From: Dipteris shenzhenensis
Taxonomy: Eukaryota
Assembly (NCBI GenBank): GCA_047967505.1
Contig: CM106538.1
Length of the DNA: 64,000 nucleotides
Reading direction: 5' to 3' (one strand)
In this document: positions 7,129 to 37,751 of the stretch, piece by piece
Layout: each line of letters opens with the position of its first letter
Numbering within the stretch: position 1 is the stretch's first letter
The notes under the pieces: model-generated
Told to the model about the DNA's origin: nothing
What the model saw: the letters and a program-made list of their open reading frames with translations, nothing else
Database searches by the model: none
Translations under genes and position numbers: made by a program

Positions 7129-8283
7129 TGTTGGCTCTTTCCCACGCCTTCCATAGGAAGAGCAAGGTATTCTCAGTATGTAGGGTTTCGAGGCTTTTTG
7201 TCACCTATAGATATATCAGGGTTGTTGTTTGTAGTATACATGTAGCTTAGGACCTCGAGTCGTGTTCCGGTGAGAGACGTAGGCTTAAGTATGGTAAGCA
7301 AACATATAACTCGCATGTATAAAAGGGACGTGTATCATCATGGTTGTGGTAATGAAGGCTTTCGTCTTCATTGGGGTTGTAGGGTTTAGGAGGAGTTCAA
7401 GGGTTAGAGGGAGGTTTAGGGTTTAGAAGGAGGTTCTAAGGTTTAGAAGGAGGTTCCAGAGTTTAGAAGAGGTTCCAGAGTTTAGAAGAGGTTCCAAGGT
7501 TTAGAGTACTATACACGGTGGAGAACTCGTCTCCCTTGTAGATCATGGAGATTAAGGGTTGAGGAACTAAGGGTTTAGGGGGAGCATAGGAGTGGGAGAG
7601 GAAGAAGGTGTAAGAGCATCGGGGAAAGAAGAGAGAGGAGGAAGGAGGAGGAGGAGGAGGAAGGAAGAAGGAGGAGAACAGAGGAGGAGAGGGGAGGAGG
7701 AGAGAGGAGGAGGAGAAGGAGGGAGGAGGAGAGGGGAGGAGGAGGAGGGAGGAGGAGAGGGAGAGGATGGGTTGCAAGGTTGGAGGAGAGGGGAGAAGGA
7801 GTTGCAAGGTTAGGACATGCTTTTGGATGTGGAGTGCAAGGAAGCATGGACGCTTGAGACAATTGCTTGGAATACCAAAGTAGAACTCAACACAATGCCC
7901 CAAAGAGTGTGGGCTTCATTCCATTATAGGGTATTTATACAAGTTGGAGAGCTTCTCTCTTTGCATGTAGGAATTGTAAGACATTCTCTCTCTATATGTA
8001 GAACTCGCATGTAGGAGTTGCATGTAGGAGTTGTATGTAGAACTCGCATGTAGGAGGTGCATGTAGAACTTGCATGTAGAACTCGCATGTAGGAGTTGCA
8101 TGTAGAACTCGCATGTAGGAGTTGCATGTAGGAATCGTATGTAGAACTTGCATGTAGAACATGCAAGTTGGATTTCTAACAGGGATTATTTCTAGCCTTA
8201 TGCAAGTACAAGTAGAGCTTTGTCACCGCTACTCTATACACACATTCTGTTCCACCTAAGTCCATGTTGGCATAGAGACAACA
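7129..8283 (-). repeat. 3' LTR of A (1155 bp) with internal ~19-20-bp, (GGA)-rich and 13-bp tandem arrays
   Basis: tgttggctc...gagacaaca; colinear with 17186-18100 plus 43687-44321. Confidence 0.9.
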
Positions 8284-9491
8284 TACTCCCGGATCCATTT
8301 TATTACCCGTCCTCGGGTTATGTCTTATTTTGATTTCGGAGTTGGGATGCCATGTGCGTAACCCAGTGGCTGTTGAGCTTGTGGCATGCGAGTCATTCTT
8401 GCTGTAATGCTTTTACACCATACAATTTATGGTCTATAGTCAGGAAGCTTATCTCCTCTTAAGGAGGGGTAGATGACTATGAATTTCAGAGGAGATCTCG
8501 TTGCTGAGGTTGCGGACTCTACCATCGAATCTTCTTGGAAAGAGATTTAGCGGGGGTCTCATTATGCCTATGTTCCTTTTGCTGCTAGATGTATGGGACC
8601 CACATAGTCAATCCCCCATTTTTCAAATGGTTTTTGTGCAACAACTATTGTTAGGGGATTGAAGTCTTTGTGTTGTGGTTTAGTAGTCCGTTGGCATACA
8701 TCACAGCCTTTTACATATTCATAGGCATCTGCTCACAGTGTTGGCCACCAGTAGCCTATAAGGAGAACTTTTCTTGCTGTGGCTTCCCCTTGGAAGTGTC
8801 CTCCTGCAATGCCTTCATGGACTTCACTAAGGATTGGCATGATCTCATGAGGCATTACACATCTTCTTAATATCTAGTCCTTGCCCATCTTGTACAGTTG
8901 TCCTGCAATGAGTTGATAGGGTGCAGCCTTTAGAATCAATTTTTTGGCATCTACTGCTTTCATTTTAGGGGGTGGTCTTCCTACCATCAAGTACCCAATG
9001 ATATCTCCACACCACTTTGGAACAGCATCTATTTGAAATAGTGTGGCATCTGGTAAGTTGTCTTCTATCCCAGTGGCTTCTTCTCCCGACTTGACACGAC
9101 ATGTGATCGGCAATGTAGTGTTGGGCGCCCTTGCGGACCACTATTTTGAAGTTGAATTCTTGAAGCAAGAGGAGCCATCTGGTTATTCTTCTTGTTGTAC
9201 ACGGACGGTTCACAAGATAAAGCAATGCTTGATGGTCAGTGTAGAAGACAAAATCATTTGCCCCAGTAGATAGTGCAAAAATTTCTTTACACTATACATC
9301 ATTGCTAGGGCTTCTCTTTCTGTGGTGGTATAGTTGATCTCTACATCATTGAGTTGTCGACTGGTGAAGTAGAATGGGTAGTCTTTCTTATGTTCACCAG
9401 GTTGACAAAGCACACTCCCAATTGCATACTTGGATCCACCAGTATGAACATGAAAATCAATGTCCCAATTGGGAGATATAAGGATGGGTGC

Positions 9492-9937
9492 TGTGATTAG
9501 GTGCCACTTTAAAAGCTCAAAGGCTTGGTTGCACTCTTCGGTTCATAAGAATTCCACTAGTAATTTGTAAAGTGGTCTAGCTATCATGGCATACTGTAAT
9601 ATAAATCTTCTATAATAGCCAGCATGTCCCATAAAGACTTGTACACCTTTGGAATTTGTAGGAGGCAATTCCATGATGCTTTTGATTTTGTCCATGTCAG
9701 TTGTTGCAATCCCATGTGATTAGGTGCCACTTTAAAAGCTCAAAGGCTTGGTTGCACTCTTCGGTCCATAAGAATTCCACTAATAATTTGTAAAGTGGTC
9801 TAGCTATCATGGCATATTGCAATATAAATCTTCTATAATAGCTAGCATGTCCCATAAAGACCTGTACACCTTTGGAATTTGTAGGAGGCAATTCCATGAT
9901 GCTTTTGATTTTGTCCATGTCAGTTGTTGCAATCCCA
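9492..9937. repeat. Tandem duplication, 2 x 223 bp, in RT/RH linker of G
   Basis: tgtgattaggtgccactttaaaagc at 9492 and 9715; tgt microhomology at the junction. Confidence 0.92.
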
Positions 9938-15643: not shown

Positions 15644-15646
15644 GGA

Positions 15647-15686
<40 letters not shown>

Positions 15687-15713
15687 GGGGGGGGAAGAGA
15701 GAGAGAGAGGGGG

Positions 15714-15767
<54 letters not shown>

Positions 15768-17185: not shown

Positions 17186-18100
17186 TGTTGGCTCTTTCCC
17201 ACGGCTTTCGCAGGAAGAGTAAGGTATTCTCAGTATGCAGGGTTTCGAGGCTTTTTGACACCTACAGATATATCAAAGTTGTCATTTGTAGTATACGTGT
17301 AGCTTAGGACCTTGAGTCATGTTCTGGTGAGAGATGTAGGCTTAATTATGGTAAGCAAACATATAACTCGCATGTATAGAAGGAATGTGTATCATCATGG
17401 TTGAGGTAATGAAGGCTTTCGTTTTCATTGGGCATTGCAGGGTTTAGGAGGAGTTCAAGGGTTAGAGGGAGGTTGAGGGTTTAGAAGGAGGTTCCAAGGT
17501 TTAGAAGGAGGTTCCAAGGTTTAGAAGGAGGTTCTAGAGTTTAGAAGAGGTTCCAAGGTTTAGAGTAGAGTACATGGTGGAGAACTCATCTCCCTCATAG
17601 ATCATGGAGATTAAGGGTTGAGGAACTAAGGGTTTAGGGGGAGCATAGGAGTAGGAGAGGAAGAAGGTGTAAGAGCTTGGGGGAAAGAAGAGAGAGGAGG
17701 GAGGAGGAGGAGGAGGAGGAGGGAGGAGGAAGGAGGAGAAGGGAGGAGGAGAGGGGAGGAGGAGAGAGGAGGAGGAGGAGGAGGGAGGAAGAGGAGGAAG
17801 AGGGAGGAGGAGAAGGGAGGAGGAGGAGGGAGGAGGAGAGGGAGAGGATGGGTTGCAAGGTTGGAGGAGAGGGGAGGAGTTGCAAGGTTAGGACATCCTT
17901 TTGGATGTGGAGTGCAAGGAAGCATGGATACTTGAGACAATTGCTTGGAATACCAAAGTAGAACTCAACACAATGTCCCAAAGAGTGTGGGCTTCATTCC
18001 ATTATGGGGTATTTATACAAGTTGGAGAGCTTCTCTCTTTGCATGTAGGAATTGTAAGACATTCTTTCTCTACATGTAGAACTTGCACATAGAAGTCGTA
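17186..18100 (-). repeat. Left part of A's split 5' LTR
   Basis: Colinear with 7129-~8020; breaks off inside the 13-bp minisatellite. Confidence 0.9.
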
Positions 18101-21100
18101 GATGGTGCGTTGATATGTGGATCGAGCGGCCGTGCTCCTGGACCGTTTAATTGCCACGCAGGAGGACAATGCTGAATTTCGAGCTGGAATGACTCAGCAT
18201 GTGTTGGGCTACCTTGTAGCAGGAGCAAGTGACGAATTTTGCCTCAAGCTTAAATGGGAGAATCCAGAAACTATGGTCCTAGCACATGAGATTGCTCAAA
18301 AGTTTGATAAAGTTCAGTCTGTGACCGCGCTTCAAAGAAGATGATTGTCCCTCCACAACCCCCTCAATTCTTGCAACAACAGCCTGGGGGATCTAACTCA
18401 GGGGCATACTCCCACCCCCCATCAGGGATGTATCCACCGCCTCCACCTTAAATGTATGGTCCTCCCTTAGATGCTTACCCCCAACAAGGTATATATTCTC
18501 ACCCTCCGCCTCGAAGATTTCCCTAGCCTCACCCACAAGCCCCCCTCCTTTCTACTCCCTCAGTCCCTCTAGCTAAAGAGGCCCCCCTGCAAAAGAACCC
18601 GGAGTCAATGACCTAGCCAAGGCCCTGAATGATCTTCGACTTGAGATGGTGGGCATCAAAAATCAAGCCAACCGCCCTCCAAGAGACCGTGCTAATGTTG
18701 TATGCTACGAGTGCCACCAGAAGGATCATTATCACACGGAATGTCCCAATATTCCCAGGGTGAGTCTTCTAAGTGAATCTGGCACTGAGGATTCTGATGT
18801 AGAGATCCTTGACCTCGAGAAAAGAAGTCGTACCACCTCGGACCCCTCTCCAAACCATGGACCCGGCTGCCCTAGGAAGAAGGTGTCCTTCTCAGAGCCC
18901 TCAGATGCTAAGATGGCAGACCCACCAATAGAGAAGACTAAAAGATCTCGCAGGAGTAAGTGGTCACCCTCGGATTTTTCCATCGGCTCGGGGCAAGAAG
19001 ACTATTTGGTCATTTAGGACCTTGCTCATCGTTCTTTGAGCATCATGCTCCCTCAACTAATAGCATTAAGCTCTAAGGTGAGACGTGAGCTGCAGCAAGG
19101 GCTCTTAACAAGGAGGAGCAAGAAAAAGGGAAAGGTACGAGAGGTCTCTTCTATCTCTGAAGAAATTGATCGGCACCCACATACAATAGATGTCATAATA
19201 GATAATTGTCATGTCAAAAATGTGTGTGTTGATGGGGGAGCTGCATGTAATATCATGGTGCCCCGAATCATGAAGAAATTAAATTTGAAATGCACAAGGC
19301 ATTTCTCCACTTGAATCAAGGTAGCAGATGGTCGACGACTCGCCACCCTGGGAGTCATTGAGGATTTGACCATCACTGTCAATGGGTTGACCACCACCGT
19401 CAATTTCTATGTAGTGGACATCGAAGATACAGGAAGGAGTTACCCAGCCATACTCAGGAGACCATGGTTGAGAAAGAGTGATGCAGTCAGCTATTGGAAG
19501 ACATGACACATGTCTTTTGGTGCTTCTAAGGAGAAGATCCCGGTGCAACCAGGTGCCACGGAGCCACAAGAAGAAGAGGAGCAAGACAGTGATACTCTCA
19601 TCCTCGGTGTCTGAATCAATGGAAGGATCAGATGGGGGGAGGAGTTCTCATATGAGGAAGTTTACATGATGGGGGTGTCTCCAACCCTGCCACCTACAGA
19701 AAAGGTAACAACTAGTCCTCAACAGCTTGAATCTATGCTTTCCCCAGACCTCACTCCAAGTGAGAAAGATGAGTTCCTAGAAATGTTCAAAGATTTCCCT
19801 GATCTTTTTGTAACTAGCTACTGCCACCTTCGCCATGTGACTACCATAGAATACAAGATAGAGCTGAAGCCTATGCAAAGCCTGTGGCTCAGAAGTATCG
19901 GAGATTAGGGCCCCTACAGACCAATGCTTTGCGCTCAGAGTTGCAGAAACTTGTAGAAGCTTGGTTTATTGTTCCAGTTCACAATACTGAATGGGTTTCA
20001 CTAGTGGTAGTCACCCCAAAGAAAAACAACAAGTGGCGGGTCTGCATCGACTATAAGAAACTCAATGCAGCCACCAAGAGGGACCATCATCCTCTTCCCT
20101 TTCAAGACCTCATTCTTGAGAAGGTAAGTGGTCATGAGATGTATACTTTCTGTGATGGTTACTCCGGGTTTTATCAAATCAGAATTGCCGAAGAAGATGT
20201 CCTTAAAACCACATTTACCACACCCTGGTGGGGGACATTTGCATTCAAAATAATGCCATTTGGCCTCACCAATGCTCTTGCTACCTTTCAAAGATTTATG
20301 CAGATGGTGTTTGCTCCTTATTTGGGGGATTTCTTGGAGGTGTTTTTAGATGATTTTTGTATATTCTCATCACGTAAGGAGCACGTCATGAAGGTTAGGT
20401 TGGCCTTCCAAAGGGTCAATGATGCGAATGGCAGTCTCAACCCTGAGAAATGCACCATTGGAGCCACTCAAGGGAGGTTACTGGGACATATTGTCTCATC
20501 CGAGGGCGTCAAGCCCTGACCCCAAGAAGGTAGAAGCCATCCTCAAGCTCTCCCCACCAACAACCAAATGTCAGTTACGCTCATTTGTCAATCTAGCAGG
20601 ATACTATCGCCGCTTCATTGATCAATATGTAGCTTTGACACGACCCATGACTATGCTATTAAAAGATGGGGTTGATTTCTCTTAGGATGAGGATTGTGAT
20701 CATGGGTTTGCACAAATCAAGAATGCTTTGGCTTTAGAACCCATTCTATGCAATCCAGATTGGTCAAAGTCTTTCTATATCAATCCTGGGTTTGGTGAGC
20801 ACACTCTGGCAGGTATTCTTCTCCAGCAAGGGGAGGATCGGTTCATGTATCCTGTTCGATTTGCTTCTCGACAATTGCTCGACACTGAGCGACGCTATTC
20901 AGAGGCTGACAAGCATGCCTTGTCTTTGGTGTTCTGCATTGAGAAATTTAAGCATTATGTGGCTGGAAAGTCCTTCATTATACTCACTAGCATTGGTCTT
21001 GCAAAGCAAGTTCTGCAATCACCAAATCCCATGGGCCGGTTGGCCAAATGGTTGGTAGTTTTACAAGAATATGATTTTTTTTTCAAAATTGTAAAAGAGG

Positions 21101-22487
21101 GTTGTTCCAACTTGAAGAATGCTTTGATTGATTTAGAGGAGTGCCTTGATGTAACCCTTGTAGCGGCCATAGAAGTTGGGGATCCATGGTATAGTGGTAT
21201 CTATAGGTTTCTAATTGCTTTCTTCTTTCATCTGGAAAGTACTAGCTATGAGAGAAAGAAGATCCGAAGAGATAGTAGGCGCTACACTCTCTTTGATGGG
21301 GTCTTGTACCGTCAAGGCATGAAGAAAAAAGAAAAGCAAGGGAACTAGAGCGATGGACATAGAGGGAAAACAAACCAAGCTTTATTGCAACAAACTAGAG
21401 ACTATACAGCTAAGAAGATTTTACATGCTGGATACTATTGGCTGACCTTGTTCAAGGATGTCACTTTGTATTGCAAAACCTGTGAACCATGCCAATTCTT
21501 TGGTAGGAAGGATTTGTGTCCTGGGCAACACATCTAGTGATGTCCATCCATCCGTTTCAGAAGTGGGGAATAGATTTTGTCGGGCCCTTGCCCATGACTG
21601 CCTACAAAAAGAAGTATCTTTTGGTAGCCACTCAGTATGTCACTAAGTGGGCTGAAGCTATCACCCTCCCCACTGCAAATGGTAAGGTAGTTTTAAATTT
21701 CATATTTGAACGTATCTACACAAGGTTTGGGACACCCATGGAAATAGTATCTGACCATGGGAGTCCATTCTTAAATGAAGCAGTGGAATTGCTCATGGAT
21801 TGCATGGGTATTGATCATCGCACTTCTAGCATCTATTATCCAGCATCCATGGGTTAAATGGAGTAGACCAATGGCCTCCTTTGTAAAACCATGGGAAAAA
21901 TGGCCACAAGGAATAGGAGCCAGTGGGATCAGAAGGTCACTAAAGCCGTGTGGGCTTACAATATTTCTCATAAAACATCTACAGGTCACACTCCTTTTGA
22001 GTTAGTGTATGGTACTGAGGCAGTTTTACCACTAGAGATAGAGATTTCGGCCTTGAGATTGGCACAAGAATAGAGGATGACAGAAGATGAACATGTAGAG
22101 GCCAGATTGGTACAACTTGAGAAGTTAGATGAAACCCGACGCCTTGCACTACACCAAATAGAGATCCAAAAGAATCGACAAAAGGCCCGCTTGATGCTAA
22201 GATTTGCAAGGGATGGGAAAGACACTTTGCGAGCACTTTGCTGAAGGGGATGTTGTGCTATGCTTTGATAACAGATTGGACTACCAAATGGATAAGAAGT
22301 TTCTGCCACTGTGGACCGATCCATACAAAGTCATCAAGGAACGTAGCAATGGGTCTGTACAAGTTCAGGAGCTGCATGAGCCATATGGCAAGAAGGTGAT
22401 TAACAAGCGTTACCTCAAGCCCTTCTTTGTGCGTGATGGGGACCCAGGCATGGAAATGCTATGCATTCCCTGCCTGGGGGGGGGAAC
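18100..22487 (+). pseudogene. Gypsy B (non-chromovirus): gag C-half, Zn knuckle, protease, RT, eroded RNase H, integrase
   Basis: CYECHQKDHYHTEC; VDGGAACNIM; FCDGYSGFYQI/MPFGLTNA/VFLDD; PFQKWGIDFVGPL, SDHG, TPFELVYG; no chromodomain; G-run PPT at 22476-22486. Confidence 0.93.
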
Positions 22488-23264
22488 TGTTATGGATAAA
22501 TTTGACCAAAGTAAAAAGGCATAAATATGTGTGTGTGTTTGTATGTGTGGCAATAATATAATAAAATATGGTGTGCATAGGGCCCAGGGTTTGAGGTGGC
22601 AGGGCATGACCATGTGCCACCCTTCCACATAAGTGGACCCATAAGGTGTGATGTACATAATCCATGGTAGTAATATTATAAAATGTAAGGTGGCATGGCT
22701 CCTCCATGTGCCACCCCTCCACCTAGGCTACATTTAGTGAGATATGGCCCAAAGTCCATGGGAGAAGTAATATAAAATACGTGGAGATGGATATTATATT
22801 GGGTTATTCCCTCCATGTAGGCCCATGTGGGGGAGGTATAGAAGGTCCAAGAGAGCAAGTTAAATAATGGGGAAAGTAGGATGAGGTGGCAAGATTCCTT
22901 GTGCCAACCCTCCACTTGTCCTCCTAGAGGTTTGAATGTATTATAAAATTGGGGAGAGACCAAGGGAGTATCATAGACTTGAGATATGGGGCTTGATTTA
23001 TGTGGAAAAATGAGGCAAAGGGTTGTCACACATAATTGAGAGTGCGTAACTGCCTAGCCCACATGGGAGGCTTTTCCACACGCACCATGCATGTGGGAGG
23101 ATGCATTTATTGGGAGAGACCCCCTCTCTTGGCTATAAAAGGAGGGGGCTATTCCTTGATGAGACATGCTCATTCTTGTAAAGCCACCTAGCTAGTACTT
23201 TGATATTTCCCCCATCCTTTCTTTCAAATAAAACATGACCCTCTTCCCTTGATGTCTCCATCTC
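22488..23264 (+). repeat. 3' LTR of B, truncated by deletion
   Basis: Starts tgttatggataaatttg after the PPT; matches 40303-41083. Confidence 0.92.
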
Positions 23265-25840
23265 CAAGGGTCTAGAATCTGGAGAATTAGCTCGCCACTG
23301 AGAAGTTTAATGAAGGAGAGACAGCAGAGGCATTCATAACTGAATAAAAAATCTACGTGACTAGATGGCTGGTGTTGGGATACAAAAGACTAGCGAAGAG
23401 CTAGCTCGGTGGTGTCTCTGGATATGTCCACCAAGGTCTGATGGAGTGGTAACGGCGATAACACTCAGGCGAGACCCCAACCATTGTCATTTGAGGAGTT
23501 TTGTGCTTTACTTATGGAGGAGGAATTAAGGCTTAAAGCTCAAGATGGAGGCAGCAATGGGAATGCTACGTTCTCTGCCACTACAAAAGGCAAAGCTGGT
23601 TCCTCCACCAAAGGTGAGTCCTCTACTAGTGGAGACAAAAAGAAGAAGGGTGACAAGAAGAAGTTTCAGGGAGAATGCTTCTACTGCAAGAAGAAGGGCC
23701 ATGTGATTGCAGATTGCCGAGTCAAGAAAGTAGATGAAAGAATGGTACCCTGAAGAAGACAGATAAGGGGAAAGAGACAACTAACACAGCAGAAGCAAAG
23801 TTGAATCTATTTTTGGCCATTGAGGAAGAGTGTTCCTCAGTTCAAGAAGCATCAACCACTAATTCATGGGTGTTGGATAGTGGTGCCTCTCGTCACATGA
23901 GTTGCAAGAAGGGTCTATATTTTTCCATGCAGCCTCTACAGGAACCCATCACTGAAGGAGATCATAGCGAGCCACGATGTGGTGTTCAAGGAGTAGCCAC
24001 ATGCAGTGGAGGCAGAGAAGTGCTCTTCCACTTTATCAACAAGTGAAGAGGTAATTCACTATGGACCTGTCCCAGGAGCTATAAAGGAGGAGGAAATAAT
24101 AGATGATGAAGGTATAAGTCACCAACCTGTTGTTACACCACCGAAAAAGCCATTGCTGCAATGGGTAAGGCAGCTCTACGACCATGATAACTAGATGCCT
24201 ATGTCTATTGAGCAGCATGCAAATGGACCAAGGCGGTCTTAGAGAATCAAGGAGCAAAGGAGGGCTTTTGCTCACATAGTCAATATGGCCTTGATGGCTG
24301 AGATTATTACAGAAGTAAAGGAGCTTGCGAGTTTGGAGGAAGCACTTGCAGACCGAGATTGGAAAAATGCTATGCAAGTAGAATATGACAACATCATGAA
24401 GAATGAAACTTGGGAGCTGGTAGATCGACCACCTAATAGAAAGGTTATTGGCACCAAGTGGGTTTGGAAGGTAAAGTACAAGGCCGATGGGACTTTGGAA
24501 AAGTACAAAGCCAGATTGGTTGCACAAGGATTTTTGTAGGTTGAAGGGTTTGATTTTCAAGAATCTTTTGCTCCGACTGCCAGAATGACCACTATTCGCA
24601 TAGTACTATCGGTGGCTGCTCATAAAAAAGTGGCCAGTTTATCAAATGGATGTTAAATCAACATTCTTGAATGGTGACCTCAAGGAGGAGGTGTACGTGG
24701 CTCAGCCACCTAGGTTTGAGGCCCCCCATTCTAAGAACAAGGTATGTAAGCTGAAGAAGGCATTGTACGGACTGAAACAGGCCCCAAGAGCATGGTACCA
24801 ATGGATAGACCAATTCTTTCATAAATTAAACTTCAAAAGATGTACCTCAGATGCTAACTTGTATGTGTACAGGAAAGGTGGAAAATCTGCTATTATTGTT
24901 CTATATGTGGATGATCTCCTTATTACAGGTGACTATGAAGACACGATCCATCAAACTAGAAAGGTGTTGATCACAGAATTTGAGATGATAGACTTAGGCT
25001 TGATGCACTACTGTTTGGGGATTGAAGTCTGGCAAGAGCCAAGCAAGAACTTCATCTCTCAACAGAAATATGCAAGGGAGATCTTGAAGGCATTTGGTAT
25101 GTCCGAGTGCAAGGAGATAGCTACACCTATGGAGGCAAATGCGAGGTTGTCTATGAACCTCACCACCAACAGACATTGGGAGGTATGGGAAGTTGGTCGG
25201 CAGTCTCATCTATTTGTGCAACACCAGACCGGACATCAGATTTGCTGTTGGCGTTTTGAGCAGGTTCTCCAATAAGCCTCGGGAGAATCATTGGAATGCA
25301 GGGATGTGGGTGCTCAAGTATGTGAAGGGCACTCTTGATTATGGCATCACTTATGGTATGGGCACTTCCTTGGCTGGTCATTATGACTCGGATTGGGCTG
25401 GAGATGTTGATTCTAGGAAATCAGTTTCTGGATATTGTTTCTCTTTAGGTTCAGGTATCTTCTCTTGGATCAGTAAGAAACAACCAATAGTGGCATTGTC
25501 TTCTACCAAGGCTGAGTACAAGGCAACATGTTTTGCTGCTTGTGAAGTAGTGTGGCTGAGGAGGATCTTATGGCACATGGGAGTGTAAGAGGATGAGGCA
25601 ACTGTGCTGAGGTGTGACAATTAAAGTTGCATGGCCATTGCTAAAAATCCAGTGTTTCATGCATGCACAAAACATATAGAGATTCAGTATCACTATGTGC
25701 ATGATTTGATCGAGGACGGGATAGTGGAATTGGTCTACTGTCCAACAGAGCAAAATGGAGCAGATATCTTTACCAAGGCACTCGGGAAGGATAAGCTTCA
25801 GGGTCATCTTCAGAGACTCAACAGTGGGCCGAGAAGGTAG
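23265..25840 (+). pseudogene. Copia C polyprotein relic (gag, protease, RT, RNase H); integrase deleted
   Basis: [85 protein letters not shown]; protease joins the post-integrase DVVF region near 23955. Confidence 0.93.
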
Positions 25841-25869
25841 TTCACCTACGGGTGGACATTGAGGGGGGG

Positions 25870-25998
25870 TGTTAGATATGGTCAATGCCCCACCCTCCTA
25901 GTAACCACCAGTGGTCCAAGGTGCTCAAGTTGTAAGGACCCCATATGAGGAGAAGGCATGTGTGAGCCCGGGACACTGGATGGATCTTGACTTGCATG
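25870..25998 (+). repeat. First 129 bp of Copia C 3' LTR
   Basis: Follows PPT gaggggggg (25861-25869); matches the starts at 26321 and 40120. Confidence 0.88.
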
Positions 25999-26002
25999 GA
26001 CC

Positions 26003-26320
26003 ACCCAAGTTTGATTAAAATTCTAGGATGTGGCATGGGCATGCATGGCCATGGTAGTGATGAGAATATGCTTTCATAGTTACAAAATTGACCAAATCTT
26101 ACTTTGAAATTGAAAAAAATGATGTGTCAAGATTATGTGAGCCATAGTGGCAATAATAAGATAGAGCAAAAGTCTTAAAGTTGGCCCCGATTCAATTCTT
26201 AATTAAAGATGTGGTACACGGGAGAGTTTGAACCATGATGCTACTAAGCGCATGTTTTTAGAGTTTTGAAATTGACCCAAGCTCGATTTTTAATTTAAAT
26301 ATGTTATATGTAGATGAGAG
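26003..26320. repeat. Duplicate of the flank 39805-40119
   Basis: acccaagtttgattaaaattctagg...tagatgagag present at both sites. Confidence 0.92.
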
Positions 26321-26964
26321 TGTTAGATATGCTCAATGCCCCACCCTCCTAGTAACCACCAGTGGTCCAAGGTGCTCAAGTTGTTAGGCCCCCATATGAG
26401 GAGAAGCCATGTGTGAGCTTGGGACACTGGATGGATCCTGACTTGCATGTCAGATGAGGTCTATCGATGAGACCGTTGATGGTAGAAAGGTGATTGTGTG
26501 GGAGCCCCTTATTCTTACTGGGGCTTGGGGGCCAGCGGCCCTCTTGGTGGGGGTTTGGGGGCAAAAGCCCCCGAGACAACCATATAGGGAATATTCCGTG
26601 AATATTCCATGGACAACTAGTCAGTTCCATTGACTAGGTTGACTGTTCGGCTTCACCGACTACGTTGATTGGTCGGCTCCACCAACTACGTTGATCCGAC
26701 TACCGCCCTCATACCTATAAAGAGGTGACCTCTCTAGTCCATTGTACCAGATCAGATCTTCCAGCATAGATCTTCCAGCTAGTAGCTCTTCACCTAGTAT
26801 CTATCTAGATCACCATCTAAGCTCCATTGTGGGAGCGCACGGGTGGACGGAGCCATCATCTGTACTACATCAGTATTGAAGGAAAATTTTGGTTCATCTC
26901 CAGTTTGCTATGTACTCTCTATTCTTTGTTCAGTTTATGTTCTACTGTGCCATGTAATTTAACA
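26321..26964 (+). repeat. Complete Copia C LTR (644 bp)
   Basis: tgttag...ttaaca; flanked by gagag/gagaa (TSD with 1 mismatch). Confidence 0.85.
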
Positions 26965-27355
26965 GAGAAAGCCAAAGTGTTACGAGCGCAAGTCTTTAGA
27001 GGTTAGAAGTCACCCAAGGCCTATTTCTAAGAAAAAGATCAAGTTGCAAATTTTTCTAAACAAGGACAGAGGGGTCAAGTTGTAATCCAATTATGTGATG
27101 TATGGGAATGTAAGTGAGTTATTGTGTTTGCAAAAGGAAGCCTTTAGAGTTTTGAAATAAAGGTTGATTTGCAAGAAAAAGATGTACATATGAGAATGTG
27201 TTCAAGCTCTAATAGTACTAGAAATTAAAAAAATCCTTCTCACCAAATTGAAATGTTTTGTGGTACATTCCAGCTCTGCTTTCAACTTTTCCAAATCAGC
27301 TAACAATTCATCTTGCATGGTGCTACTAGCATTTTTTAGTTTGGTATGAACTTAG

Positions 27356-30300
27356 TGTGAAGATAGTGGGAGAGAGGGAAGGAGTCTCACTTGCGGCTTT
27401 CTCACATACACAATGGGGGAATACACACAAAGGTGGAGACTGAAAATAGTTTTTCTCTTCTTAGTTGTGAAAGCCAAAAGAACTCTAGTACAAAGAAATA
27501 GAAGAACCCTATATGTGGGTCTCAAACCAAACTCAGCTAACTAAGGTGGCATACTAACTGAGCCACGAACTAGAGTACATAAGGATAGCTGTCATCCAGC
27601 TATTATTCATGAGCGGTGTACCAACCGCATGTGCAGCTAATAAGTCAATCACATAAATGCACAACGGTCACCCTGGCATATTACGAGTGGAGCTCGATAT
27701 CTCAACACTCCCCCTTGAGCTCAATCCCAATTCCTACACACCAAGCAGGTCTCTAAACTTGCATAGCTTCTCTGTGCCCAATGCCTTCGTAAATATGTCA
27801 GCTACCTGATCCTCTATGCTGACATAAACTAGAGCAATAAGACCTAGTAAAACCTTCTCTTGCACATAGTGATAATGCACCTCAATGTGCTTTGTTCTAG
27901 CATGATAGACTAGGTTATTTGCCAAGTGTATACTGCTCATGTTGTCACAATAAATGACAATTGGCCCATCTGTAGACTGATGCATATCATAAAGTAGCTT
28001 ATGCAACCAAGCTACCTCACATGCAACCATTGCTGCACCCCTGTACTCAGCCTCTATGCTCAACAAGGCAACTGTAGGCTATTTCTTGCTGCTCCAAGTT
28101 ACTGCAGCACTCCCAAAAGAGAACACACATCCACTGGTAGATCGTCTATCAGAAATACTACCAGCCCAATCAGCATCAGTGTATCCATGCAACTGTATTT
28201 GAACCCTAGCCTCATAAAATAGTCCATAATGCAATGTGGACTTCACATACCTGAGTATGTGTCTAGCTGCATCCAAATGCGGTTTCCTTGGAGCCTGCAT
28301 AAACTGACTTACCAATCCAATAGCATAGCTCAAATCTAGCCTAGTAATAGTCATATAAATCAAACTTCCTACTATGCGTCTGTACATAGTAGGGTCTTCC
28401 AGAAGCTCACCTGCATCTGCGCTCAGCTTCACATTCTGCTCGAAAGGAACTGAAATAGGCTTACAGCCTGTCATCCCATATTTGGATAGCATGTCCAATC
28501 CATACTGCCTCTGCAAGAGCTGTATCCCACTTGGTGATCTAATCACCTCAATGCGCAAGAAATAATGCAGCTCTCCCAAATCATTCATCTCAAACTTCTA
28601 CTTCAATAGCATTTTCACATGAAGGATATCTTCATCACTATCACCTGTGATGATCAAATCATCAACATAAATGACAAGCAGCATAATACCTTTCTCTGTT
28701 TTTCTCACATAAAGTGAGAAATCTACCTTGGAAATCTGAAAGCCAATAGTGACAAGATACTATCCTATCTTGTCAGACCATGCTCTAGGTGCTTGCTTCA
28801 AGCCATATAAGGCTTTCTTCAACCTGCAAACAAACTCAAGATGAACAGCATGAACATAACCTGTGGTGGCTGCTCCATAAAGACCTCTTCTTGCAAATCA
28901 CCATGCAAGAACGCATTCTTTACTTCCGTGTGATGTAAAGACCATCCCTTTGATGCAGCCATAGCAATGACTACTCTTACGATTGCCATCCTTGCAACCG
29001 GACTGAATGTTTCTTCATAATCAATGCCATATGTCTGTGCATACCCCTTGACAACTAATCTTGCCTTGTATCTGTTCACAGAACTATCTGCATTGTGCTT
29101 CACCTTATAAACCCACTTATAGCCAATTGCATTATTGTCTTTAGGCAAAGGCACCAATTCCCATGTAGCATTTGCTTCCAAGGCATCCATTTCTTCATCC
29201 ATGGCTTTCTCCCATTTTTCTTTTCCTATGGCTTGCTCAAAAGAAGTGGGTTCTGGTTCCTGTATCACTTTGACCATATAGGCATAGTGAATGGCTGTAA
29301 ATCCATCATATTTCAGCCTATCCATAGGATACCTAGCTCTGGTAGACCTGTGCAAAATAGGCTCACTTCTAGGTGCTTTCAAAACATCCTTGGTCTTCCT
29401 TACTCCAGGTGTAACAACAGAAGGAATACCCAACTCATCATCAATGCTCTGTTCTGAGCCATTGGATTCACCGTCGACATAAGAGTGACCTGCATTCACA
29501 TCAAACATGGGCTGATATACCTTCTCTTTTCCTTTTCGTGATACCTGCATACCACTATCTGCATTGCTTTGAGGAGATTCTCCTGATCTCAATCTGCCTG
29601 TCCATGGCAAAGTATGTGAACCACTGCTAGAGGACACTGCAGGTCCACTAATATTTTGTGATTGCTGTTGCGAATTCTGTGCAGCATTACCATTTTGTGC
29701 ATCTACATCAATCATCACATTTACTGGTTTATACCAGCTGCTCATCTCATCAAAAACAACATCTCTACTCACTGTAAACTTACGAGTAGAAGGGTTATAG
29801 CATCTATACCCTTTCTGCTGTAGAGAATAACCAATAAAGATGCACTTCCCAGCTTTTGGATCCAACTTGGACCTCAACTCATCTGGTACATGAACATAGG
29901 CAATGCAACCAAAAATTTTCAAATGAGAAATATCTGGTTTCCTACTAGTATACATCTCCTCTGGCATCATGCCATGTATTGCTGCAGTGGGAGTCCTGTT
30001 CATTATGTAAACTGCTGTAGCAACTACTTTAATCTGGTAGGTCTTTTTCATTTAGCATGGCCCGAGATACCTCTCCAATATGCCTGTTTTTCCTTTCTGC
30101 AAGTCCATTTTGCTGTGGGGTATGACTGCATGAATATTGCTGCTTTATGCCATGCTCCTGTAGGAACTTTGCAAACTCATTTGAGAGGTACTCTCCCCCT
30201 CCATCTAACCTTAGGCATTTTATTTGCAGGCCTATTTCTTTTTCAACCATAGCTTTAAAAGCTTTGAAATGCCCAAACACTTCACTTTTCTTTTTCATAA

Positions 30301-32450
30301 AATGCACCCAAACTTTTCTAATGTAGTCATCAATAAAAGTGACAAAATAATGACAGCCTCCAATAGATGCAGCTTTAGTAGTCCACACATTAGTGTGGAT
30401 TAATTCCAATGGCTTCTTACTCTCTTGAACATGCCTAGGAAAAGGTTTCCTTGCCTGTTTTCTAAATTGATAGGCTTCACATACCTTATGCATTTCTGCA
30501 ACCTTGAATTTAGGCAATCCTGCAACAATATTTTGGGCCTGCATTAATTTAGGTTGTTGTACATTAACATGACCAATGCGTTTATGCCAGATATCAATAT
30601 CTACAACAACACCGGTCCCATGTGCAAACATTGCTGCACTCAATTCAGGCATGTCCACGTCCAGCGTAAACATCCTGCCCTTCTTCTTTCCTTTTGCTAT
30701 CAAGCAACCGTTATTTTTCATATCCTCAACAAAGCATCCATGAGGATTAAATCTGACCTACAAGCCGGCCTGCTCAACCATTTGACCAACAGAAACTAGG
30801 TTCTTGGTGATATTCGGGACATGAAATACATCAGACAGGTATTTCTTTTTCCCATCTTGCATAAACAAAGGAATTTTACCAATCTGCACAATAGGATGTG
30901 TAGTATCATCACCAGTCTCCACAAATCCTGGTTTTTTCATTTTCCTTGCATCCTGCATCCATTCTGCATGACCTGTCATGTGGTTTGACGCACCTGAGTC
31001 AACATACCACACATCATTTCGCTCTTTTGTACTTGTCACAGAATTGGTCATGTGCTACACCATAAATAGATGCTCATTTCTATCATCACCCTGTCTACTA
31101 GAAGATGCATAATTGCCTTGCTGCAATTTTCCATTCATAATGTCATTATGCTTTTTGTAGCAGTCTTTAGCCATATGACCCATTTTACCATAATAGTAGC
31201 ATTCAACTTTGTTGTTTGCATTTTGGCCTCTCTGCTATCCACCATGATCTCTTTGGCTCCCCCTGCCTCTAGAGTTACCACGTCCTCCTCCAAAGGACTG
31301 TTTTTCTTGAGTTTGCTGCATATTCTGATTTCTACCATGGCCTCCAGATCGGCCTCCTCTACCTCTACCTCTACCTCTTCCAGCATTTGAGTAGAAGATA
31401 GTTTCTTTTAAAGTTCCTCCTGAAGAAGATGCACCACCATTTCTCTGCTCTTCAGAAATTAGAAGAGCAAAGAACTCCTCAAAATCAGGAAATTTTTCAC
31501 GGACGACAATGGATGTCCGGAACTGTGCATAATCCTTTCTTAGACCATTCAAGGTCACAGAAACTAGATCATCATCTTCCACTGGTGACCCAATGGAAGC
31601 AAGTGCATCTGCAATTTTCTTCACCTTCATGTGGTAGTCATTCATGCTCATATTTTCTCTCTGCACATTGTGCAACTCCTGCTTGAGCTGCATTTTCCTG
31701 GCTTGCATATTTGTGCTGTACATTTTTGCCAAAGTATCCCATGCCTCCTTTGGCATACTTGCATCCTGAATATGCACAATCATAGAATCCGAAGTACTGA
31801 TAGACAGCCAGTACATAGCTTTTCTGGCTCTCTCATGCCATCCTTTAAATGCCTACATTTCCTGTTGATTGGGAGCATTAGGAAGAACTGGTTCTTCATT
31901 TCCCATAAGGAAATTCGTCATTCTAAACTTCCATGCTTGGAAGTTGTTCTTGTCAAGCTTTTCAGTGACAATCTGTGAAAGAGAATCAGACGCCATTATA
32001 GAACACTGCAAAATATTCTGTCACTGTAAAGAACACAGCTTCTGCCTCACACGAGCAAATCTGCAAAACTGACGAAAGTGGTATTTGACCACACAGTCAC
32101 TTCCTAGTGATGATTTTGCATCAACAGGCAGTAAGGATGATTCTGTAATCCTAGTATCTCTGCGCATAGGCATATGATGCAATTTCTGCGGCAACTTTTC
32201 ACCGACCTGCAAAGCAATGGTCACACAGCAAAAACAGGGCCTTTTTCTGAGTGCCTGCGAAGAACTTTTGTCTTCAAAACGGGCCCCGAAATGGCCTCGA
32301 ATAAGAAAATTAAAGTCACCAAGGGCTTTGCCCTGTCCCGCAGCATATACTGCCCTCTCACCATACCACGAAGGGCGTCTCAATCTGAGACAGTGCACTC
32401 TTGCATCACCTGCCACCTCAGCTACCCAATCAACAATGCCAGCTAGGCAC
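27356..32450 (-). mobile_element. Copia E: 3' LTR (27356-27707), PPT, full decayed gag-pol; 5' LTR missing
   Basis: LTR tgtgaag...ctcaaca followed by ctccccctt; coding region below. Confidence 0.85.
27734..31996 (-). pseudogene. Copia E gag-protease-integrase-RT-RNase H
   Basis: [81 protein letters not shown]; multiple stops. Confidence 0.95.
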
Positions 32451-33140
32451 CCCTACCTCCTGCCAAGAACGCTGTGCACACTACATGTGACCACACCTAC
32501 CACATCATCAGAGTGCTCCACAGGCATACCCATTGCTAGGCACAGTCACTGCATGTGACATCCTGAGTGCCACATCATCACTGAGCACATTTGCACCCTT
32601 TTTGCCTGTCCACCTACATCAAGTCATATCTCTTGATCCAGGAAGAATTTGAGGACGCTCCAAAAAGAACTATGCGCTCCACATCACGTGCACATTTTGA
32701 GGTGCAGGCGACAAATCCGCACATCAGCCTCTAATCGATGCATCTGACCACCCAGCACCTAAAACGAACAAAGAAAAGGAATTATTTGTTGCTTTTTCAT
32801 CGCTCGACGGTTGGTCTAGATCTAGTTTAGAGTAGATTATATCATCCATAGCGGAGAGAACTCAAAAGCAGCCAATCGAAGCCATGCCAAAAATTCCTAA
32901 AAAGTTCATACTCAGAGTCAGTCCCAGCACTCACATGCAGTTTCTCATCATCATATTACGTGAAGCCTAACATTCCACAGTTCAGTGAGAAGACTTCAGA
33001 GTGTTCAAAGACATTGATTGATTGTTTAGTTGGCAAATAGCACATTATTTGATTTCACACATACATGCCATCATTGTAAAGCCTATTTGGCTATTTCACG
33101 GCATTGTGCACATCAATTCAAGCCTTGTAAAGTCTCTTGG

Positions 33141-33287
33141 TGTTAGAGCTATATATAGCTTTCCCTAACTCAGCCTAGTCCTCAACTATATATATGCCTA
33201 TGATCTATGAATAGAATCCCTGCCTTGGGAGCAACTCTTGTGTCCATCTCTCTTCTCTTTCTCTTCCTCTCAACATTGTATCAAAGC
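33141..33287 (+). mobile_element. Short (135 bp) LTR plus decayed iMet PBS; TRIM- or Copia-like fragment
   Basis: tgttagag...ctctcaaca (33141-33275) followed by ttgtatcaaagc; starts exactly where homology to 48961 stops. Confidence 0.6.
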
Positions 33288-33559
33288 CTGGCTACACTCT
33301 CGCATGACTGTGAGAAGATCTTTATGATCGTTTTGACTACTTGATCGCTAGGTTTTTAGTTGATATGCAAAAGTTATCAAAGATGAATTGCGAATCAACA
33401 CCATGATCATGATTGATGAAAATTGCCCGTGATGGCTTGTTCAAAGCGTATGCGCCAGTTATTTTGATTGGCTAGATCACTATATTCCGATTTCAAGTAA
33501 GAAAGTTATGGTTGATTCTTTTTGCTTCTTGCTATCAATAAACTTATGTCAGAGTATGA

Positions 33560-36500
33560 GGTCAAAATGCGAGAGTTGCAATCAACACAATTGTACGAGG
33601 GTGTTAGGATGTCTAAACTACGTGCTTGTCTCTCAATCTTGAATCTACAAGTAAAGTATGGGTGGTCGAATAAGTGTCTCAGCCTTAATGAGGTTAGCTC
33701 TTGCATTAATTTGACTCATTATTTGGATATTGTTTGTTTTGAGAATCATCATGTTTGTTTTAAGAAACATCATTTGGATAGTGTATACCGAATCATTATT
33801 GTTCGAAGCCTATGTATGTTTGAATTGTCATAGGTTGCTCCAGAAGATGTTGCCTGCACCAAATACCATGCTCGCATCAAGAGATGAAGCGAAAAAGATT
33901 CTAACAACGGTGGGTATGGATTATGATACCATCCATGCTTGCCGTAATGATTGTATTCTCTTTCGTCGTGAGCATGGAGATTTGGCTAGTTGTCCAAAGT
34001 GTGGGGACCAATGATATAGAGATGACTTGCAAGGTGAGCAGATACCGGTAAAGGTCTTGAGACACTTTCCCATCATTGCAAGAATACAACACATGTTTTG
34101 ATGCAAATCCATAGCGGAGTTGATGACATGGCATGCATCTCATTGGTCCAACAATGACACATTGAGGATTCCCGCAGATTGTGCAGCTTGGAAGCACATA
34201 GATAATCAGTGGTCGGACTTTGCGAGGGAGCCACGCAACTTACATCTTGGGCTCACGATGGATGGCGTGAATCCTTTTGGGTTACGCTCGACATCCTGGT
34301 CGACATGGCCCACAGTCGTGGTGAATTACAATATCCCACCATGGCTAACAATAAAAAAGGGACACCTCATTCTTGCACTACTTGTGCCAGGAAAGTACAA
34401 GACAAAAAATATGGACGTGTACATGGCACCTTTGATAGAGGAGTTATAGATATTATGGAGAGGAGTGCAGGTCTTTGATATTTCCAGAGCTCCTAGACAT
34501 ACTAATGATATTTTGGTCAGGGGTATCTTGATGTGGACCATGCATGACTACCCATTATATGGAGAGTGCGCAGGTACGTGGTTGTGTCTCTACATGTATA
34601 ATGAGGGATTATGCTTTTATGACTCTCTTTCGCACGCATGTCTTATTCTAACACATTCATGCACGCATGCAGGACTTGTTGCAAGTGGGTACCATGCTTG
34701 TCCTGTTTGTGGATCGGGTTTGAAATCGCTTGCATGCTACTCCAAACATATGAGGAAAAATGTTTATGAAGATCATGCTCGATACCTTCCGCTCGACCAT
34801 CTTGCACGTGGAGGTCAGCTTGATCCACCACCATCACATTTGAAGGCAAGTGACTGGATTCAAGCTTGGAGGGTGAATGGAGAGGAACCTCCTCCTGATA
34901 TGAAGAGGCTATCGATCTTTCATGAGCTTCCTTATTGGGGTCAGTTACAAATCAATCATCTCTTGGATCCCATGCATATCTTCAAGAATGTGGGGGCTAC
35001 TATTTGGGCACACTTGGTTGGTTCCAAAGACTCGAGAGGAGTGCGAGAAGACTTGCGTGCTATGAATAGGATGTCTCGTTTGTGGCCCCAAGTGCATGCT
35101 TCGGGAAAAGTTATCCTCCTGAAAGCAACGTGGATCCTCTCTACGAGGGAGGAGGCAGCGATCAAGGCAGACATTGCCTCTTTTCAAACACTGATAGGGT
35201 ACATGCGTTGCTTGAAAGGAGCATTTTCAAAGGACAATAAGCTTAGTGGGCTCAAGTCCCATGATTGGCACAAGGTCTTACAGGTATTCTAAGTAGAATT
35301 AGTGTAACGATAATCGTGATGCATTAGCGTAATTACGATTCTGTTATATATTGTTGACATGACTTCTTTGTTGCTTTGATAGTTCATCCTCCCAATTACA
35401 ATAAAAGGGTGCTTACAAGAAGATGTTAGAAATGCTATATTCAAGATCTGTGGTATTGTGAGGTATGCTTACTATCAAATCGCATTGATTGCATTTTCTT
35501 CAATTTAAGCTTATTAATCTATAGACTGATTATGAAAATATCTTACATGGACATGTGAAATAGGTGGATATCTCAAAAAGAGATCTCCATATCGAGCATC
35601 GAGAAGGCTAGGGTGGAATCCATCGAAGCCGTAGGCTTGCTTGAGAAGTACTTTCCCTCGAGCATTATGACAACTCAAGTCCACTTGCTTGTGCACAGTT
35701 GATGAGGTGGCTATTGCAGGTACCATTCATAGTTGATGGATGTTTTTTCTCGAGCGGTTTATGAAAACTTTAAAGGGATTTGTAAGACAAAGAGCAAGAC
35801 CAGAAGCAAGCATGGCAGAGGGATGGCTTGTGCAAGAGTCATTAGTATATATCACAGAGTTTCTTGCATCCATGGATCCGATATGCCACAAGCTTAGCAT
35901 AACAAGGATGATGATCACATCGTTGGTGAGGTTCCTCAAGGAAAAGGGATTGAAAGAAAGATGAGCGAAGAGCAAATGGAGAAATTCAATAAGTTTTGTA
36001 TCCTGAATAGCCCTGAGATGTAGAAGTGGATTGAGAGATATGAAGTGGCCAAAGCAGAAAGAATAAATGCAAGGACGAGATTCAGAGTAATGTACAGGCG
36101 ATCGCAACCATATCCACGGGATCAAGCTCTTCTCCCCACTCACATGTCACTTGATTGGCTACAACTGGCTCTACGTAAAGCCGAACGTGATGGAGAGACA
36201 ATAAACGGGCGCAAGACAGAGTTATCAACTGGATGTATGTTGCATGTAAGTTTCTTACCTCTTGACGTAATTAAGTAATTATTTGTGGCAATATACGCTA
36301 TAAAATAGATGCATCTTCATTGTTTTAATGATGCTCTTTTACAGTACAAAAAGTACAGTGCATTATGGTCATATGGACGACATTTTCGCATGGAACGCAT
36401 CGATTCAAAGAGAGTCACGTATGATTGTGGAGTCATGGCTAACCTCACACAAGATAGCCGAGCAAGTGCTTCAGATACCAATCTTCTCTCCTCACAGTTG

Positions 36501-37251: not shown

Positions 37252-37399
37252 TTTTTTTCATCTCAAACTTGGACATGAATATATGAGCTTCAAAGGCTTG
37301 ATGTACATGCTCTCATATTTTTATTCTCTATGAGATCAAACATGTATGAAAATTAAAAAAAATTTGTCATAAGGCCTATATGAGTAAAAAACCTCTCTG

Positions 37400-37594
37400 G
37401 AAAACGTCGCTATAAAATAGTATCTCAGTGTCGCTATATAGCGACTTTTGTAATAGTCGCTATATAGCGACGTTTATCTAATGTTGCTATATAGCGACGC
37501 TTTACGAGACGCACTTTTCATACCAACGATTAGCACCCCGTGCGCGCTAAACATCGGTATGTAAACATCGCAATAGGATCCGTGTGTAGTAGTG
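37400..37594 (+). mobile_element. CACTA 3' terminus with subterminal palindromic repeats
   Basis: Ends gtgtgtagtagtg (reverse complement CACTACTACACAC); repeated gtcgctatatagcgac motifs at ~37405-37500. Confidence 0.9.
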
Positions 37595-37751
37595 TATTTC
37601 TAATAATCTATGGAAAAATTAGCTACAAATCCTTCATCGTTGCCAATAGTTTTAATTTCATTAAACTACAATTAAATTACAATTGATTATTTTATAGGTA
37701 TTGCATTGAATTTTCTCTCTATATACAAAATTATGAATGTTCATAGATTAC

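Follow-up and report, generated by a model that had tools for sequence, protein, structure and literature searches.

A Ty3/gypsy family of Dipteris shenzhenensis with a predicted noncatalytic RT-fused RNase H and a probable solo archaeal-type RNase H

The stretch of 64,000 nucleotides analysed here (contig CM106538.1 of assembly GCA_047967505.1 of Dipteris shenzhenensis; hereafter the window) holds a broken Ty3/gypsy retrotransposon, element B, in which the RNase H behind the reverse transcriptase appeared to lack its catalytic residues. This raises the question whether the loss belongs to the family or to one decayed copy and, if it belongs to the family, which enzyme would cleave the RNA/DNA hybrid. 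A preliminary description of the locus ascribed this role to a separate archaeal-type RNase H (aRH).

Catalytic sites and predicted fold of the native RNase H

The pol domains of B lie on the plus strand in the order RVT_1, RT_RNaseH, Integrase_H2C2 and rve, which is the Ty3/gypsy order PR-RT-RH-INT when the protease, assigned by its motif, is included. The reverse transcriptase is encoded by an ORF piece at 19818..20516 (PF00078, E 3.4e-26) and the integrase by two frames at 21349..21854, with Integrase_H2C2 (PF17921, E 2.4e-06) in 21349-21534 and rve (PF00665, E 1.2e-13) in 21507-21854. The translated region 19201..19503 (VDGGAACNIM ... ILRRPWL), in which a Pfam search found nothing, we take to be the protease because of its motif.

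The native RNase H domain (RH) spans 20743..21135. Alignment with 149 library matches puts G35, H77, S102 and N145 (codons 20788-20790, 20914-20916, 20989-20991 and 21118-21120) where D-E-D-D is expected, and the translation of 20686-21348 reads FYINPGFGEHT, EADKHALSL and ILTSIGL, then GDPWY; the altered motifs reported earlier (INPGFG, DKHAL and TSI) are the same. With Pfam scores of 72.8 bits for PF17917 (RT_RNaseH; E 2.9e-20) and 78.3 bits for PF17919 (E 4.9e-22), the domain is, judged by its sequence, a genuine RT-linked RNase H.

The AlphaFold2 model of the domain reached pLDDT 89 and pTM 0.84, with an alignment that included canonical RHs and thus biased the model towards an RNase H fold. 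The top solved structures in Foldseek were those of CaMV RT, MMLV RT and Ty3 RT (TM 0.76-0.78), and the parts of the hits that this predicted structure matched were RT-linked RNase H domains and connection regions. The RH of B is thus predicted to keep the RNase H fold without the catalytic residues. In this it resembles the connection or tether domain of retroviral RTs (MMLV, XMRV, HIV-1; TM 0.76 to MMLV RT 4mh8), which sits between the polymerase and the active RNase H function as the RH of B does. The active RNase H of retroviruses is fused in cis, whereas in B it would be a separate small protein, and the two arrangements have independent origins.

Directly 3' of the RH follows the GDPWY pre-integrase motif (21178..21192, plus strand, from the translation), which leaves no space for an aRH of 130 aa between RH and integrase and bears out the earlier statement that no aRH follows the RH. 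The end of the RH is covered by five family fragments (P0006, P0009, P0015, P0019 and P0023), every one of them colinear with B. Of these, P0019 runs on from the RH into the zinc-binding region of the integrase; a copy-specific deletion of an aRH, for which the preliminary description had proposed to look, was not found.

Extent of the loss in the family and its clade

The family of B is multi-copy, with 617, 626 and 475 contigs for DNA runs X2, X3 and X5, and RNA run X17 gave 4 reads, all less than 90% alike, over the conserved RT part only. Family fragments with 55-72% identity to B show a non-acidic residue wherever they cover a catalytic site. The second site (E) is H in P0007 and P0023 (2/2 clearly aligned), the third (D3) is N in P0006, P0007, P0009 and P0023 (4/4) and the fourth (D4) is N in P0006, P0009, P0015, P0019 and P0023 (5/5). 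The first site (D1) is R in P0035 (non-acidic in 1/1), and for this site the loss in the family is drawn from that single fragment, from P0022, which is more distant, and from the clade.

In an RH tree of 144 rows, the clade that holds B has 20 rows (SH-aLRT 97). D-E-D is absent from 20/20 rows of this clade and present in 114/124 rows elsewhere, and because of this difference the loss of D-E-D-D is, on the aligned residues, beyond chance. Most rows of the B group score only 55-75 bits with PF17917, as against 113-136 bits for canonical RHs. Nine of the 20 clade rows carry RVT_3 in the same protein as the RH (P0075, P0092, P0102, P0078, P0045, P0017, P0042, P0056 and P0108). Since the tree was made from a quick search that took in no named Tat or Athila reference, the assignment of B to Tat derives from its clustering with these RVT_3-bearing proteins. 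Longer relatives of the RH protein were two distant proteins among 794 candidates.

One might suspect that the changes in the RH of B reflect random decay of a single dead copy while the RH of the family is active. The copy is indeed heavily broken, and the well-supported differences between B and its family are mostly T/C and A/G, as is typical of decay (among the differences listed, 40 of 583). This explanation is however extremely improbable, since the same or other non-acidic residues occupy these sites in all covering family fragments and since D-E-D is lacking throughout the B clade. The fixation check proposed in the preliminary description therefore came out in favour of fixed substitutions: the aligned sequences support a catalytic loss that is fixed in the B family and the wider clade and not specific to this copy. 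The stop at 20683-20685, in contrast, is peculiar to the B copy among the differences listed in the DNA contig comparison.

The solo aRH and the permuted copy

In the ORFs of the window that were scanned, RVT_3 turned up at a single place, 42339-42893. The corresponding plus-strand ORF (42432..42896; PF13456) encodes a solo aRH of 154 aa with D-E-D-D intact at 42456, 42573, 42645 and 42795, and it carries a single in-frame stop in B (42627-42629). Relatives with about 80% identity start and end as the ORF in B does, and 14 full-length relatives are free of stops. In an alignment of 26 rows the four residues are kept in 25/26 (D), 25/26 (E), 25/25 (D) and 16/16 (D). Compared with dual-RH proteins, the ORF shows 33-35% identity to their aRH domains (E 3e-22 to 9e-16). 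A Protein Atlas look-up returned bacterial RVT_3/RNase_H clusters only, and a metagenome scan for aRH loci gave one distant locus with 33% identity.

The preliminary description held that B depends on an upstream, functional aRH. The dependence gains support from the existence of a separate ORF with intact D-E-D-D, on the same strand and in the same inserted segment as B, and from its 14 full-length relatives. ‘Upstream’ does not fit the window, where the native RH comes first and the aRH 21 kb further downstream, and ‘functional’ can hold for the family only, given the in-frame stop in this copy.

B is inserted in an LTR of another element, A. The left LTR of A (7129..8283; TG..CA) contains a 13-nt tandem array, and it is in this array that the right LTR is cut by B into a first part (17186..18096, 90.8% identity to 7129-8018) and a second part with array plus unique tail (43687..44321); the TSD TTTAC at 44322-44326 matches 7124-7128. 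The RNase H of A (8968..9542, minus strand), which had been cited as neighbour ‘G’ with its motifs kept, does retain TEREAL, TDHQ and ADHMS; it has, however, G at the first catalytic position (HTGGS) and contains a frameshift.

Within the LTR of A, the segments of B follow each other as gag C-terminal half, pol, a Copia insertion, aRH and gag N-terminal half, which amounts to a circular permutation. The translated C-terminal half (18114..18744, plus strand, from YVDRAAVLLDRL..., with a CCHC knuckle at 18703-18744) starts at the junction with the array, about 18097, and the translated N-terminal half (43401..43686, plus strand, MADIPMFCGW...) ends at the array, the ATG lying 504 bp past the aRH ORF. 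The C-terminal half is presumably gag by its motif pattern; Pfam found nothing on either half, even at E 5. P0155 and P0158 share the start Met with the N-terminal half, but all four candidate relatives of this half stop short of the break, so that they lend no support to continuity of gag across the junction.

The nested Copia element X (22488..41085, plus strand), which itself contains further insertions, begins just 3' of the integrase of B. Its LTRs (22488-23264 and 40303-41085) are 96.5% alike, and it has no target-site duplication (GGAAC vs CATTC). It may therefore be that sequence has been lost between the pol part of B (18097-22487) and its aRH/gag-N part (41086-43686), or that the two stem from different copies. 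With the Copia element removed, about 1.35 kb separate integrase and aRH.

The coding pieces of B hold at least nine in-frame stops and several frame changes. The copy in the window is dead and cannot work, given these stops and frameshifts, the stop in the aRH and the permuted insertion in the LTR of A. Repeat and motif searches of the window recognised no LTR pair, PBS or PPT of B itself, which reflects the state of this copy and not that of the family. A PBS motif for initiator tRNA-Met had 10 matches against 6 expected, none of them usefully placed. Non-chromoviruses reportedly do not use an initiator tRNA-Met PBS (PMC6317226).

Treating the aRH and B as one element is based on their position within the same inserted segment. 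Alternatively, the ORF could be foreign to B and adjoin it by chance, as part of another repeat (e.g. a LINE that encodes an archaeal-type RNase H) or of a host gene fragment. The linkage of the aRH to gag or pol is known from this window alone, as no relative that links them was found in the searches for aRH, gag and RH relatives or in the metagenome scan, and it is a Copia element without TSD that divides the two parts of B. A foreign origin is nonetheless quite unlikely: the surroundings hold neither an RT nor an endonuclease nor any other domain that would point to a second element, the ORF lies on the same strand and in the same segment between the two halves of the LTR of A, it exists in many copies (clusters with 25 and 8 members, on short separate contigs), and an aRH is expected in a clade with a dead RH.

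We therefore consider it highly probable that B, a dead copy, comes from a Tat-lineage Ty3/gypsy family whose RT-fused RH is noncatalytic with its fold kept, and in which cleavage is done by the solo 154-aa aRH. In such a family, the RT-fused RH would have lost all four catalytic carboxylates and would keep its RNase H fold in the manner of the retroviral tether, and the separately encoded aRH would supply the hybrid cleavage. By analogy with what has been published on Tat elements and retroviruses, the dead RH may still bind and position the RNA/DNA hybrid, and the solo aRH may act in trans inside the particle.

Placement of the aRH and relation to known Tat structures

Degradation of the native RH is described for all aRH-bearing Tat structures, wherever the aRH sits (PMC10508981), its combination with a solo aRH has been published (PMC10508981, PMC13468544), and the same pattern of dead RH and aRH appears in PMC6317226. 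A dead native RH with a solo aRH, as in the B family, is thus a known Tat arrangement and not a new one.

Two of the known structures do not fit. Structure 1, the ‘retroviral’ dual RH of Ogre, Retand and others (PMC4408406), is the form of P0075, P0092 and P0102, the nearest long relatives of the RH of B (38-39% identity), and in both B and these proteins NP[S/G]xG replaces TDAS. It was rejected for B, in which the RH runs into GDPWY; unlike in structure 1, RH and integrase are not separated by an aRH in B or in the five colinear family fragments. Structure 2 (copia-like) was rejected as well, the gap of about 300 nt between PR and RT having no RNase H match.

Since B is permuted, it does not by itself distinguish a ‘pre-capsid’ from a ‘post-integrase’ aRH. 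The pre-capsid form (structure 4; Tat B of mosses and Tat C of Selaginella tamariscina in PMC10508981 and PMC13468544) shares with B a solo D-E-D-D aRH before gag and a degraded native RH, but the B copy is permuted, and its aRH precedes gag without a recognised LTR pair around the two. An intact element of this form would carry the aRH ahead of gag, in the 5' leader, and the single LTR of the permuted copy would lie in the 1.35-kb interval between integrase and aRH. We give this placement about an even chance. The 504 bp between aRH stop and gag ATG are too short to hold a PPT, a usual Tat LTR, a PBS and a leader together, and the Copia element without TSD in the integrase-aRH interval offers a possible site of lost sequence. 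On the other hand, no signature of an LTR, PBS or PPT was found in 41086-42431, structure 4 has been published from mosses and one clubmoss only (PMC10508981), and the runs with the B family total about 2.5 billion contig letters, hinting at a large genome.

The post-integrase form (structure 3, TatIII-like), with the aRH downstream of integrase and before the 3' LTR, is a somewhat weaker candidate. It is known as TatIII of REXdb and from Tat H of conifers and Tat I of Ginkgo and Cycas, with the aRH as a solo ORF or at the Pol C-terminus (PMC6317226, PMC13468544). B shares with it the degraded native RH and the order of integrase, then aRH, which are colinear in the window over 1.35 kb once the Copia element is removed; the same sources give a solo aRH after integrase as the form in conifers, Ginkgo and Cycas, and the purine run AAAAGAAGGA and then TG stand at 43001-43012, 105 nt past the aRH stop. 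Unlike in structure 3, what comes 504 bp after the aRH of B is the start of gag and not a recognisable 3' LTR. Only about 390 bp would be left for the whole LTR, PBS and leader, and no CA/TGG boundary was found in them.

A further, rather doubtful reading combines two proposals, namely that the B copy arose when an extrachromosomal circular (single-LTR) retrotransposon DNA, or a template-switch product, re-entered the genome by microhomology and left it as a footprint, and that the family is a seed-plant or other large-genome example of Tat whose sole active RNase H would be a free 154-aa protein that has to get to the particle in trans. B has a single break, in gag, both ends of which adjoin one 13-nt array of the LTR of A, and gag at the break (..GAAGGTGTAGGAG / ..GAAGTCGTAGATGG) is similar to the array unit (CATGTAGGAG). 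No record bridging the junction at 18097 was present among those listed in the DNA contig comparison. The permuted copy is a minor curiosity with regard to the integrase-free entry of retrotransposon DNA into a genome.

With either placement of its aRH, the B family repeats the published rule that the native RH of Tat elements degrades regardless of the position of the additional RNase H, and it provides a clean, checkable example. The 2023 authors left the question how reverse transcription can be served by an RNase H whose coding sequence is outside pol, and the many intact, near-identical copies of the solo aRH ORF could be used to test it.

The native RNase H of element B is dead but conserved

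Domain matches and translation place the broken gag-pol of element B, a decayed Ty3/gypsy copy assigned to the Tat lineage, at ~18.1-22.5 kb on the + strand. It comprises a CCHC knuckle (18703-18744), a protease-like stretch, RVT_1 (19818-20516), RT_RNaseH/RT_RNaseH_2 in an ORF at 20686-21345, Integrase_H2C2 and rve, all on the + strand. This copy is dead, since at least nine in-frame stops terminate its coding pieces and the frame shifts repeatedly. The family is multi-copy (617, 626 and 475 public contigs aligned, from three DNA runs of one organism). The stop at 20683-20685, just 5' of the native RNase H (RH) ORF, is unique to the window copy; at its middle base every aligned contig of the three runs differs from the window, among the 40 of 583 differences listed in the comparison with B.

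The RH ORF encodes FYINPGFGEHT, EADKHALSL and ILTSIGL, and continues via KNALIDLEECLDV... to GDPWY (21178) and the integrase. The preliminary description had read these motifs at the canonical catalytic positions, and translation and alignment bear out its text. In an alignment of the matching region excised from 149 of the 150 best library matches, the columns of the four catalytic carboxylates expected in active RNase H (D-E-D-D) hold G35 (20788-90), H77 (20914-16), S102 (20989-91) and N145 (21118-20) on the + strand. The fourth carboxylate is thus gone too, beyond the losses first listed.

A representative library at 50% identity contributed seven short family fragments with 55-72% identity to B (P0006, P0007, P0009, P0015, P0019, P0023 and P0035), each a singleton cluster of short-contig origin. 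Wherever these cover a catalytic site, the alignment has no acidic residue, as expected if the substitutions are fixed: D1 reads INPRFG (P0035), E reads SEKHAL (P0007) or KERHQL (P0023), D3 reads IISN(N/K)GL (P0006, P0007, P0009, P0023) and D4 reads KNALIDL or KNVLIDL (P0006, P0009, P0015, P0019, P0023). All five fragments that reach the RH end keep the order of B as far as ..DPWY.., and P0019 extends on into the integrase zinc-binding region. A copy-specific deletion at 21130-21180 is therefore ruled out, and the claim that nothing stands between RH and integrase holds.

For an RH-domain tree (144 rows, quick IQ-TREE search), at least 95 residues of the domain were required, which removed six rows, including short B-family fragments. 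A single branch (SH-aLRT 97) parts 20 rows, including B, from 124 others. D-E-D is absent from all 20 and kept in 114 of the 124, the ten exceptions being scattered single changes. The clade rows have NP[S/G]xG in common in place of TDAS, and most score weakly against PF17917, like B (55-75 bits; canonical RHs 113-136 bits). The RH beside the RT is thus dead but conserved. Its fold is predicted to be kept: a model of the 131-aa domain (pLDDT 89, pTM 0.84), built on a 24-row alignment whose canonical RHs favour the RNase H fold, has the beta-beta-beta-alpha-beta-alpha-beta-alpha topology, with cauliflower mosaic virus RT (TM 0.78), MMLV RT (0.76) and Ty3 RT (0.76) as best solved matches.

A solo archaeal-type RNase H, conserved and intact in relatives

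Stop-to-stop ORFs of at least 62 aa in the whole window, and of at least 45 aa on the + strand at 17-28 kb, were scanned with RVT_3 (PF13456), the profile for the additional archaeal-type RNase H (aRH). Matches occurred only on the + strand, at 42339-42626 and 42630-42893, and nowhere else among these ORFs. The solo ORF starts at Met 42432 and terminates at 42894-42896 (+, 154 aa), interrupted by a single in-frame stop (42627-42629). All four catalytic residues are present, since its translation contains FDGA, NQAEY, GDSQL and VADFL. Relatives of ~80% identity start and end as this ORF does and form two 90% clusters of 25 and 8 members; 14 are full length without a stop. A 26-row alignment (the window, 15 of the 25 and 8 of the 8 members, P0161 and P0162) has D at D1 and E at E in 25 of 26 rows each, and D at D3 in 25/25 and at D4 in 16/16 covering rows. 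The solo RNase H is thus conserved, and intact in relatives. Against three dual-RH proteins, it matches their aRH domains at 33-35% identity, with E-values from 3e-22 to 9e-16.

Permuted element B within element A

Self-comparison and junction sequences gave the layout. The duplication TTTAC (7124-7128 and 44322-44326) stands on either side of the host, element A (7129-44321, pol on the - strand). The left LTR of A (7129-8283, TG..CA) contains a 13-nt tandem array, and its right LTR (17186-18096 and 43687-44321) is split inside that array, with 25.6 kb between the halves. The array (unit like GCATGTAGGAGTT) spans ~170 bp on the left (7990-8160) and, on the right, ~120 bp before B and ~520 bp after it (43687-44210), and has therefore expanded in one LTR. 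The RH of A (8968-9542, within 8285-9542, - strand) shows TEREAL, TDHQ and ADHMS, in agreement with the TEREAL and DHQ first reported for this neighbour; E, D and D are kept, the first catalytic position is G (HTGGS) and the domain is frameshifted. The internal region of A gave no RVT_3 match. It also holds near-exact tandem duplications at 9492-9940 (223-226 bp, 97%, in the RT/RH region) and 11489-11925 (216-221 bp, 99.5-100%), and long purine-rich simple repeats with strong GC skew and GA/GAG runs (15200-16700), which produce long spurious ORFs in all frames.

B occupies 18097-43686, within the array of the right LTR (within 17186-44321). The insert opens with the gag C-terminal half (YVDRAAVLLDRL...), followed by CCHC, PR, RT, RH and IN to 22487. 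A Copia element follows IN (LTRs 22488-23264 and 40303-41085, 96.5% alike). From 41086 to 43686, on B's strand, come 1.35 kb with no recognised domain, the solo aRH ORF, 504 bp and the gag start at 43401 (+, MADIPMFCGW...), whose N-half extends to the array; P0155 and P0158 have the same Met. Both halves are presumably gag, as judged from motif patterns; neither matched Pfam, and none of the gag relatives spans the break. From this order, B is circularly permuted, with both breaks at one place in gag. The coinciding breaks, and gag letters at both ends that resemble the array unit, suggest a circular or template-switched form entering by microhomology, or a misjoin of the array. A permuted copy inside another element's LTR is the one unusual thing here, outside the main RH finding.

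The Copia element has no target-site duplication at its ends (GGAAC vs CATTC), and its 3' LTR begins exactly at the end of a second LTR-like pair (26003-26501 and 39805-40302, 94.8%). These features point to a composite element at 22488-41085 or to copies that recombined. CACTA-type transposase fragments lie inside this region (34102-35961, +; Transposase_21, E 2.2e-35; DUF4218). Two more Copia elements (28082-31852 and 46222-48927, both -) carry gag, Pol_BBD, gag_pre-integrs, rve, SH3_retrovirus and RVT_2. A 293-bp sequence at 1-293 is repeated directly at 2559-2851, an offset of 2558 bp, with 99.7-100% identity, possibly as the two LTRs of a short and very young element; 2494-2505 (-) perfectly matches the initiator-tRNA-Met PBS motif.

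Placement of the aRH and the Tat pattern

The preliminary description had B depend on an upstream aRH. The dependence of the family on a further RNase H has good support. "Upstream" describes only one of two possible placements, because the permutation of B puts the aRH past integrase and also ahead of gag. A pre-capsid solo aRH is structure 4 of mosses and one clubmoss (PMC10508981), and we give this placement an even chance in the B family: the 504-bp gap is short for PPT, LTR, PBS and leader together, and sequence may be lost in the other interval, where the Copia element lacks a duplication. Post-integrase placement, structure 3 of conifers, Ginkgo and Cycas and TatIII of REXdb (PMC6317226 and PMC13468544), is a more tentative reading; integrase then aRH is the colinear order in the window, a purine run then TG lies 105 nt past the aRH stop, and the host genome is apparently large.

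Nine of the 20 clade rows have RVT_3 within the same protein; P0145 covers RH to integrase without an RVT_3 match, and the remaining rows are fragments stopping shortly past RH. A dead RH with RVT_3 in the same protein is the published Tat pattern. The native RH is degraded in every aRH-bearing Tat structure, regardless of aRH position (PMC10508981), and solo-ORF forms are named in PMC13468544. On the features that could be tested, the B family agrees with Tat as described in PMC10508981 and PMC13468544; the only misfits, that no LTR pair, PBS or PPT was found in the B copy, are specific to this broken copy. How a free aRH protein would reach the particle is a question also raised by the 2023 authors (PMC10508981). 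The B family is a new case of an already published Tat pattern, in which, by analogy with PMC10508981 and PMC4408406, the dead RH would be a tether holding the hybrid and the solo aRH would cut the RNA.
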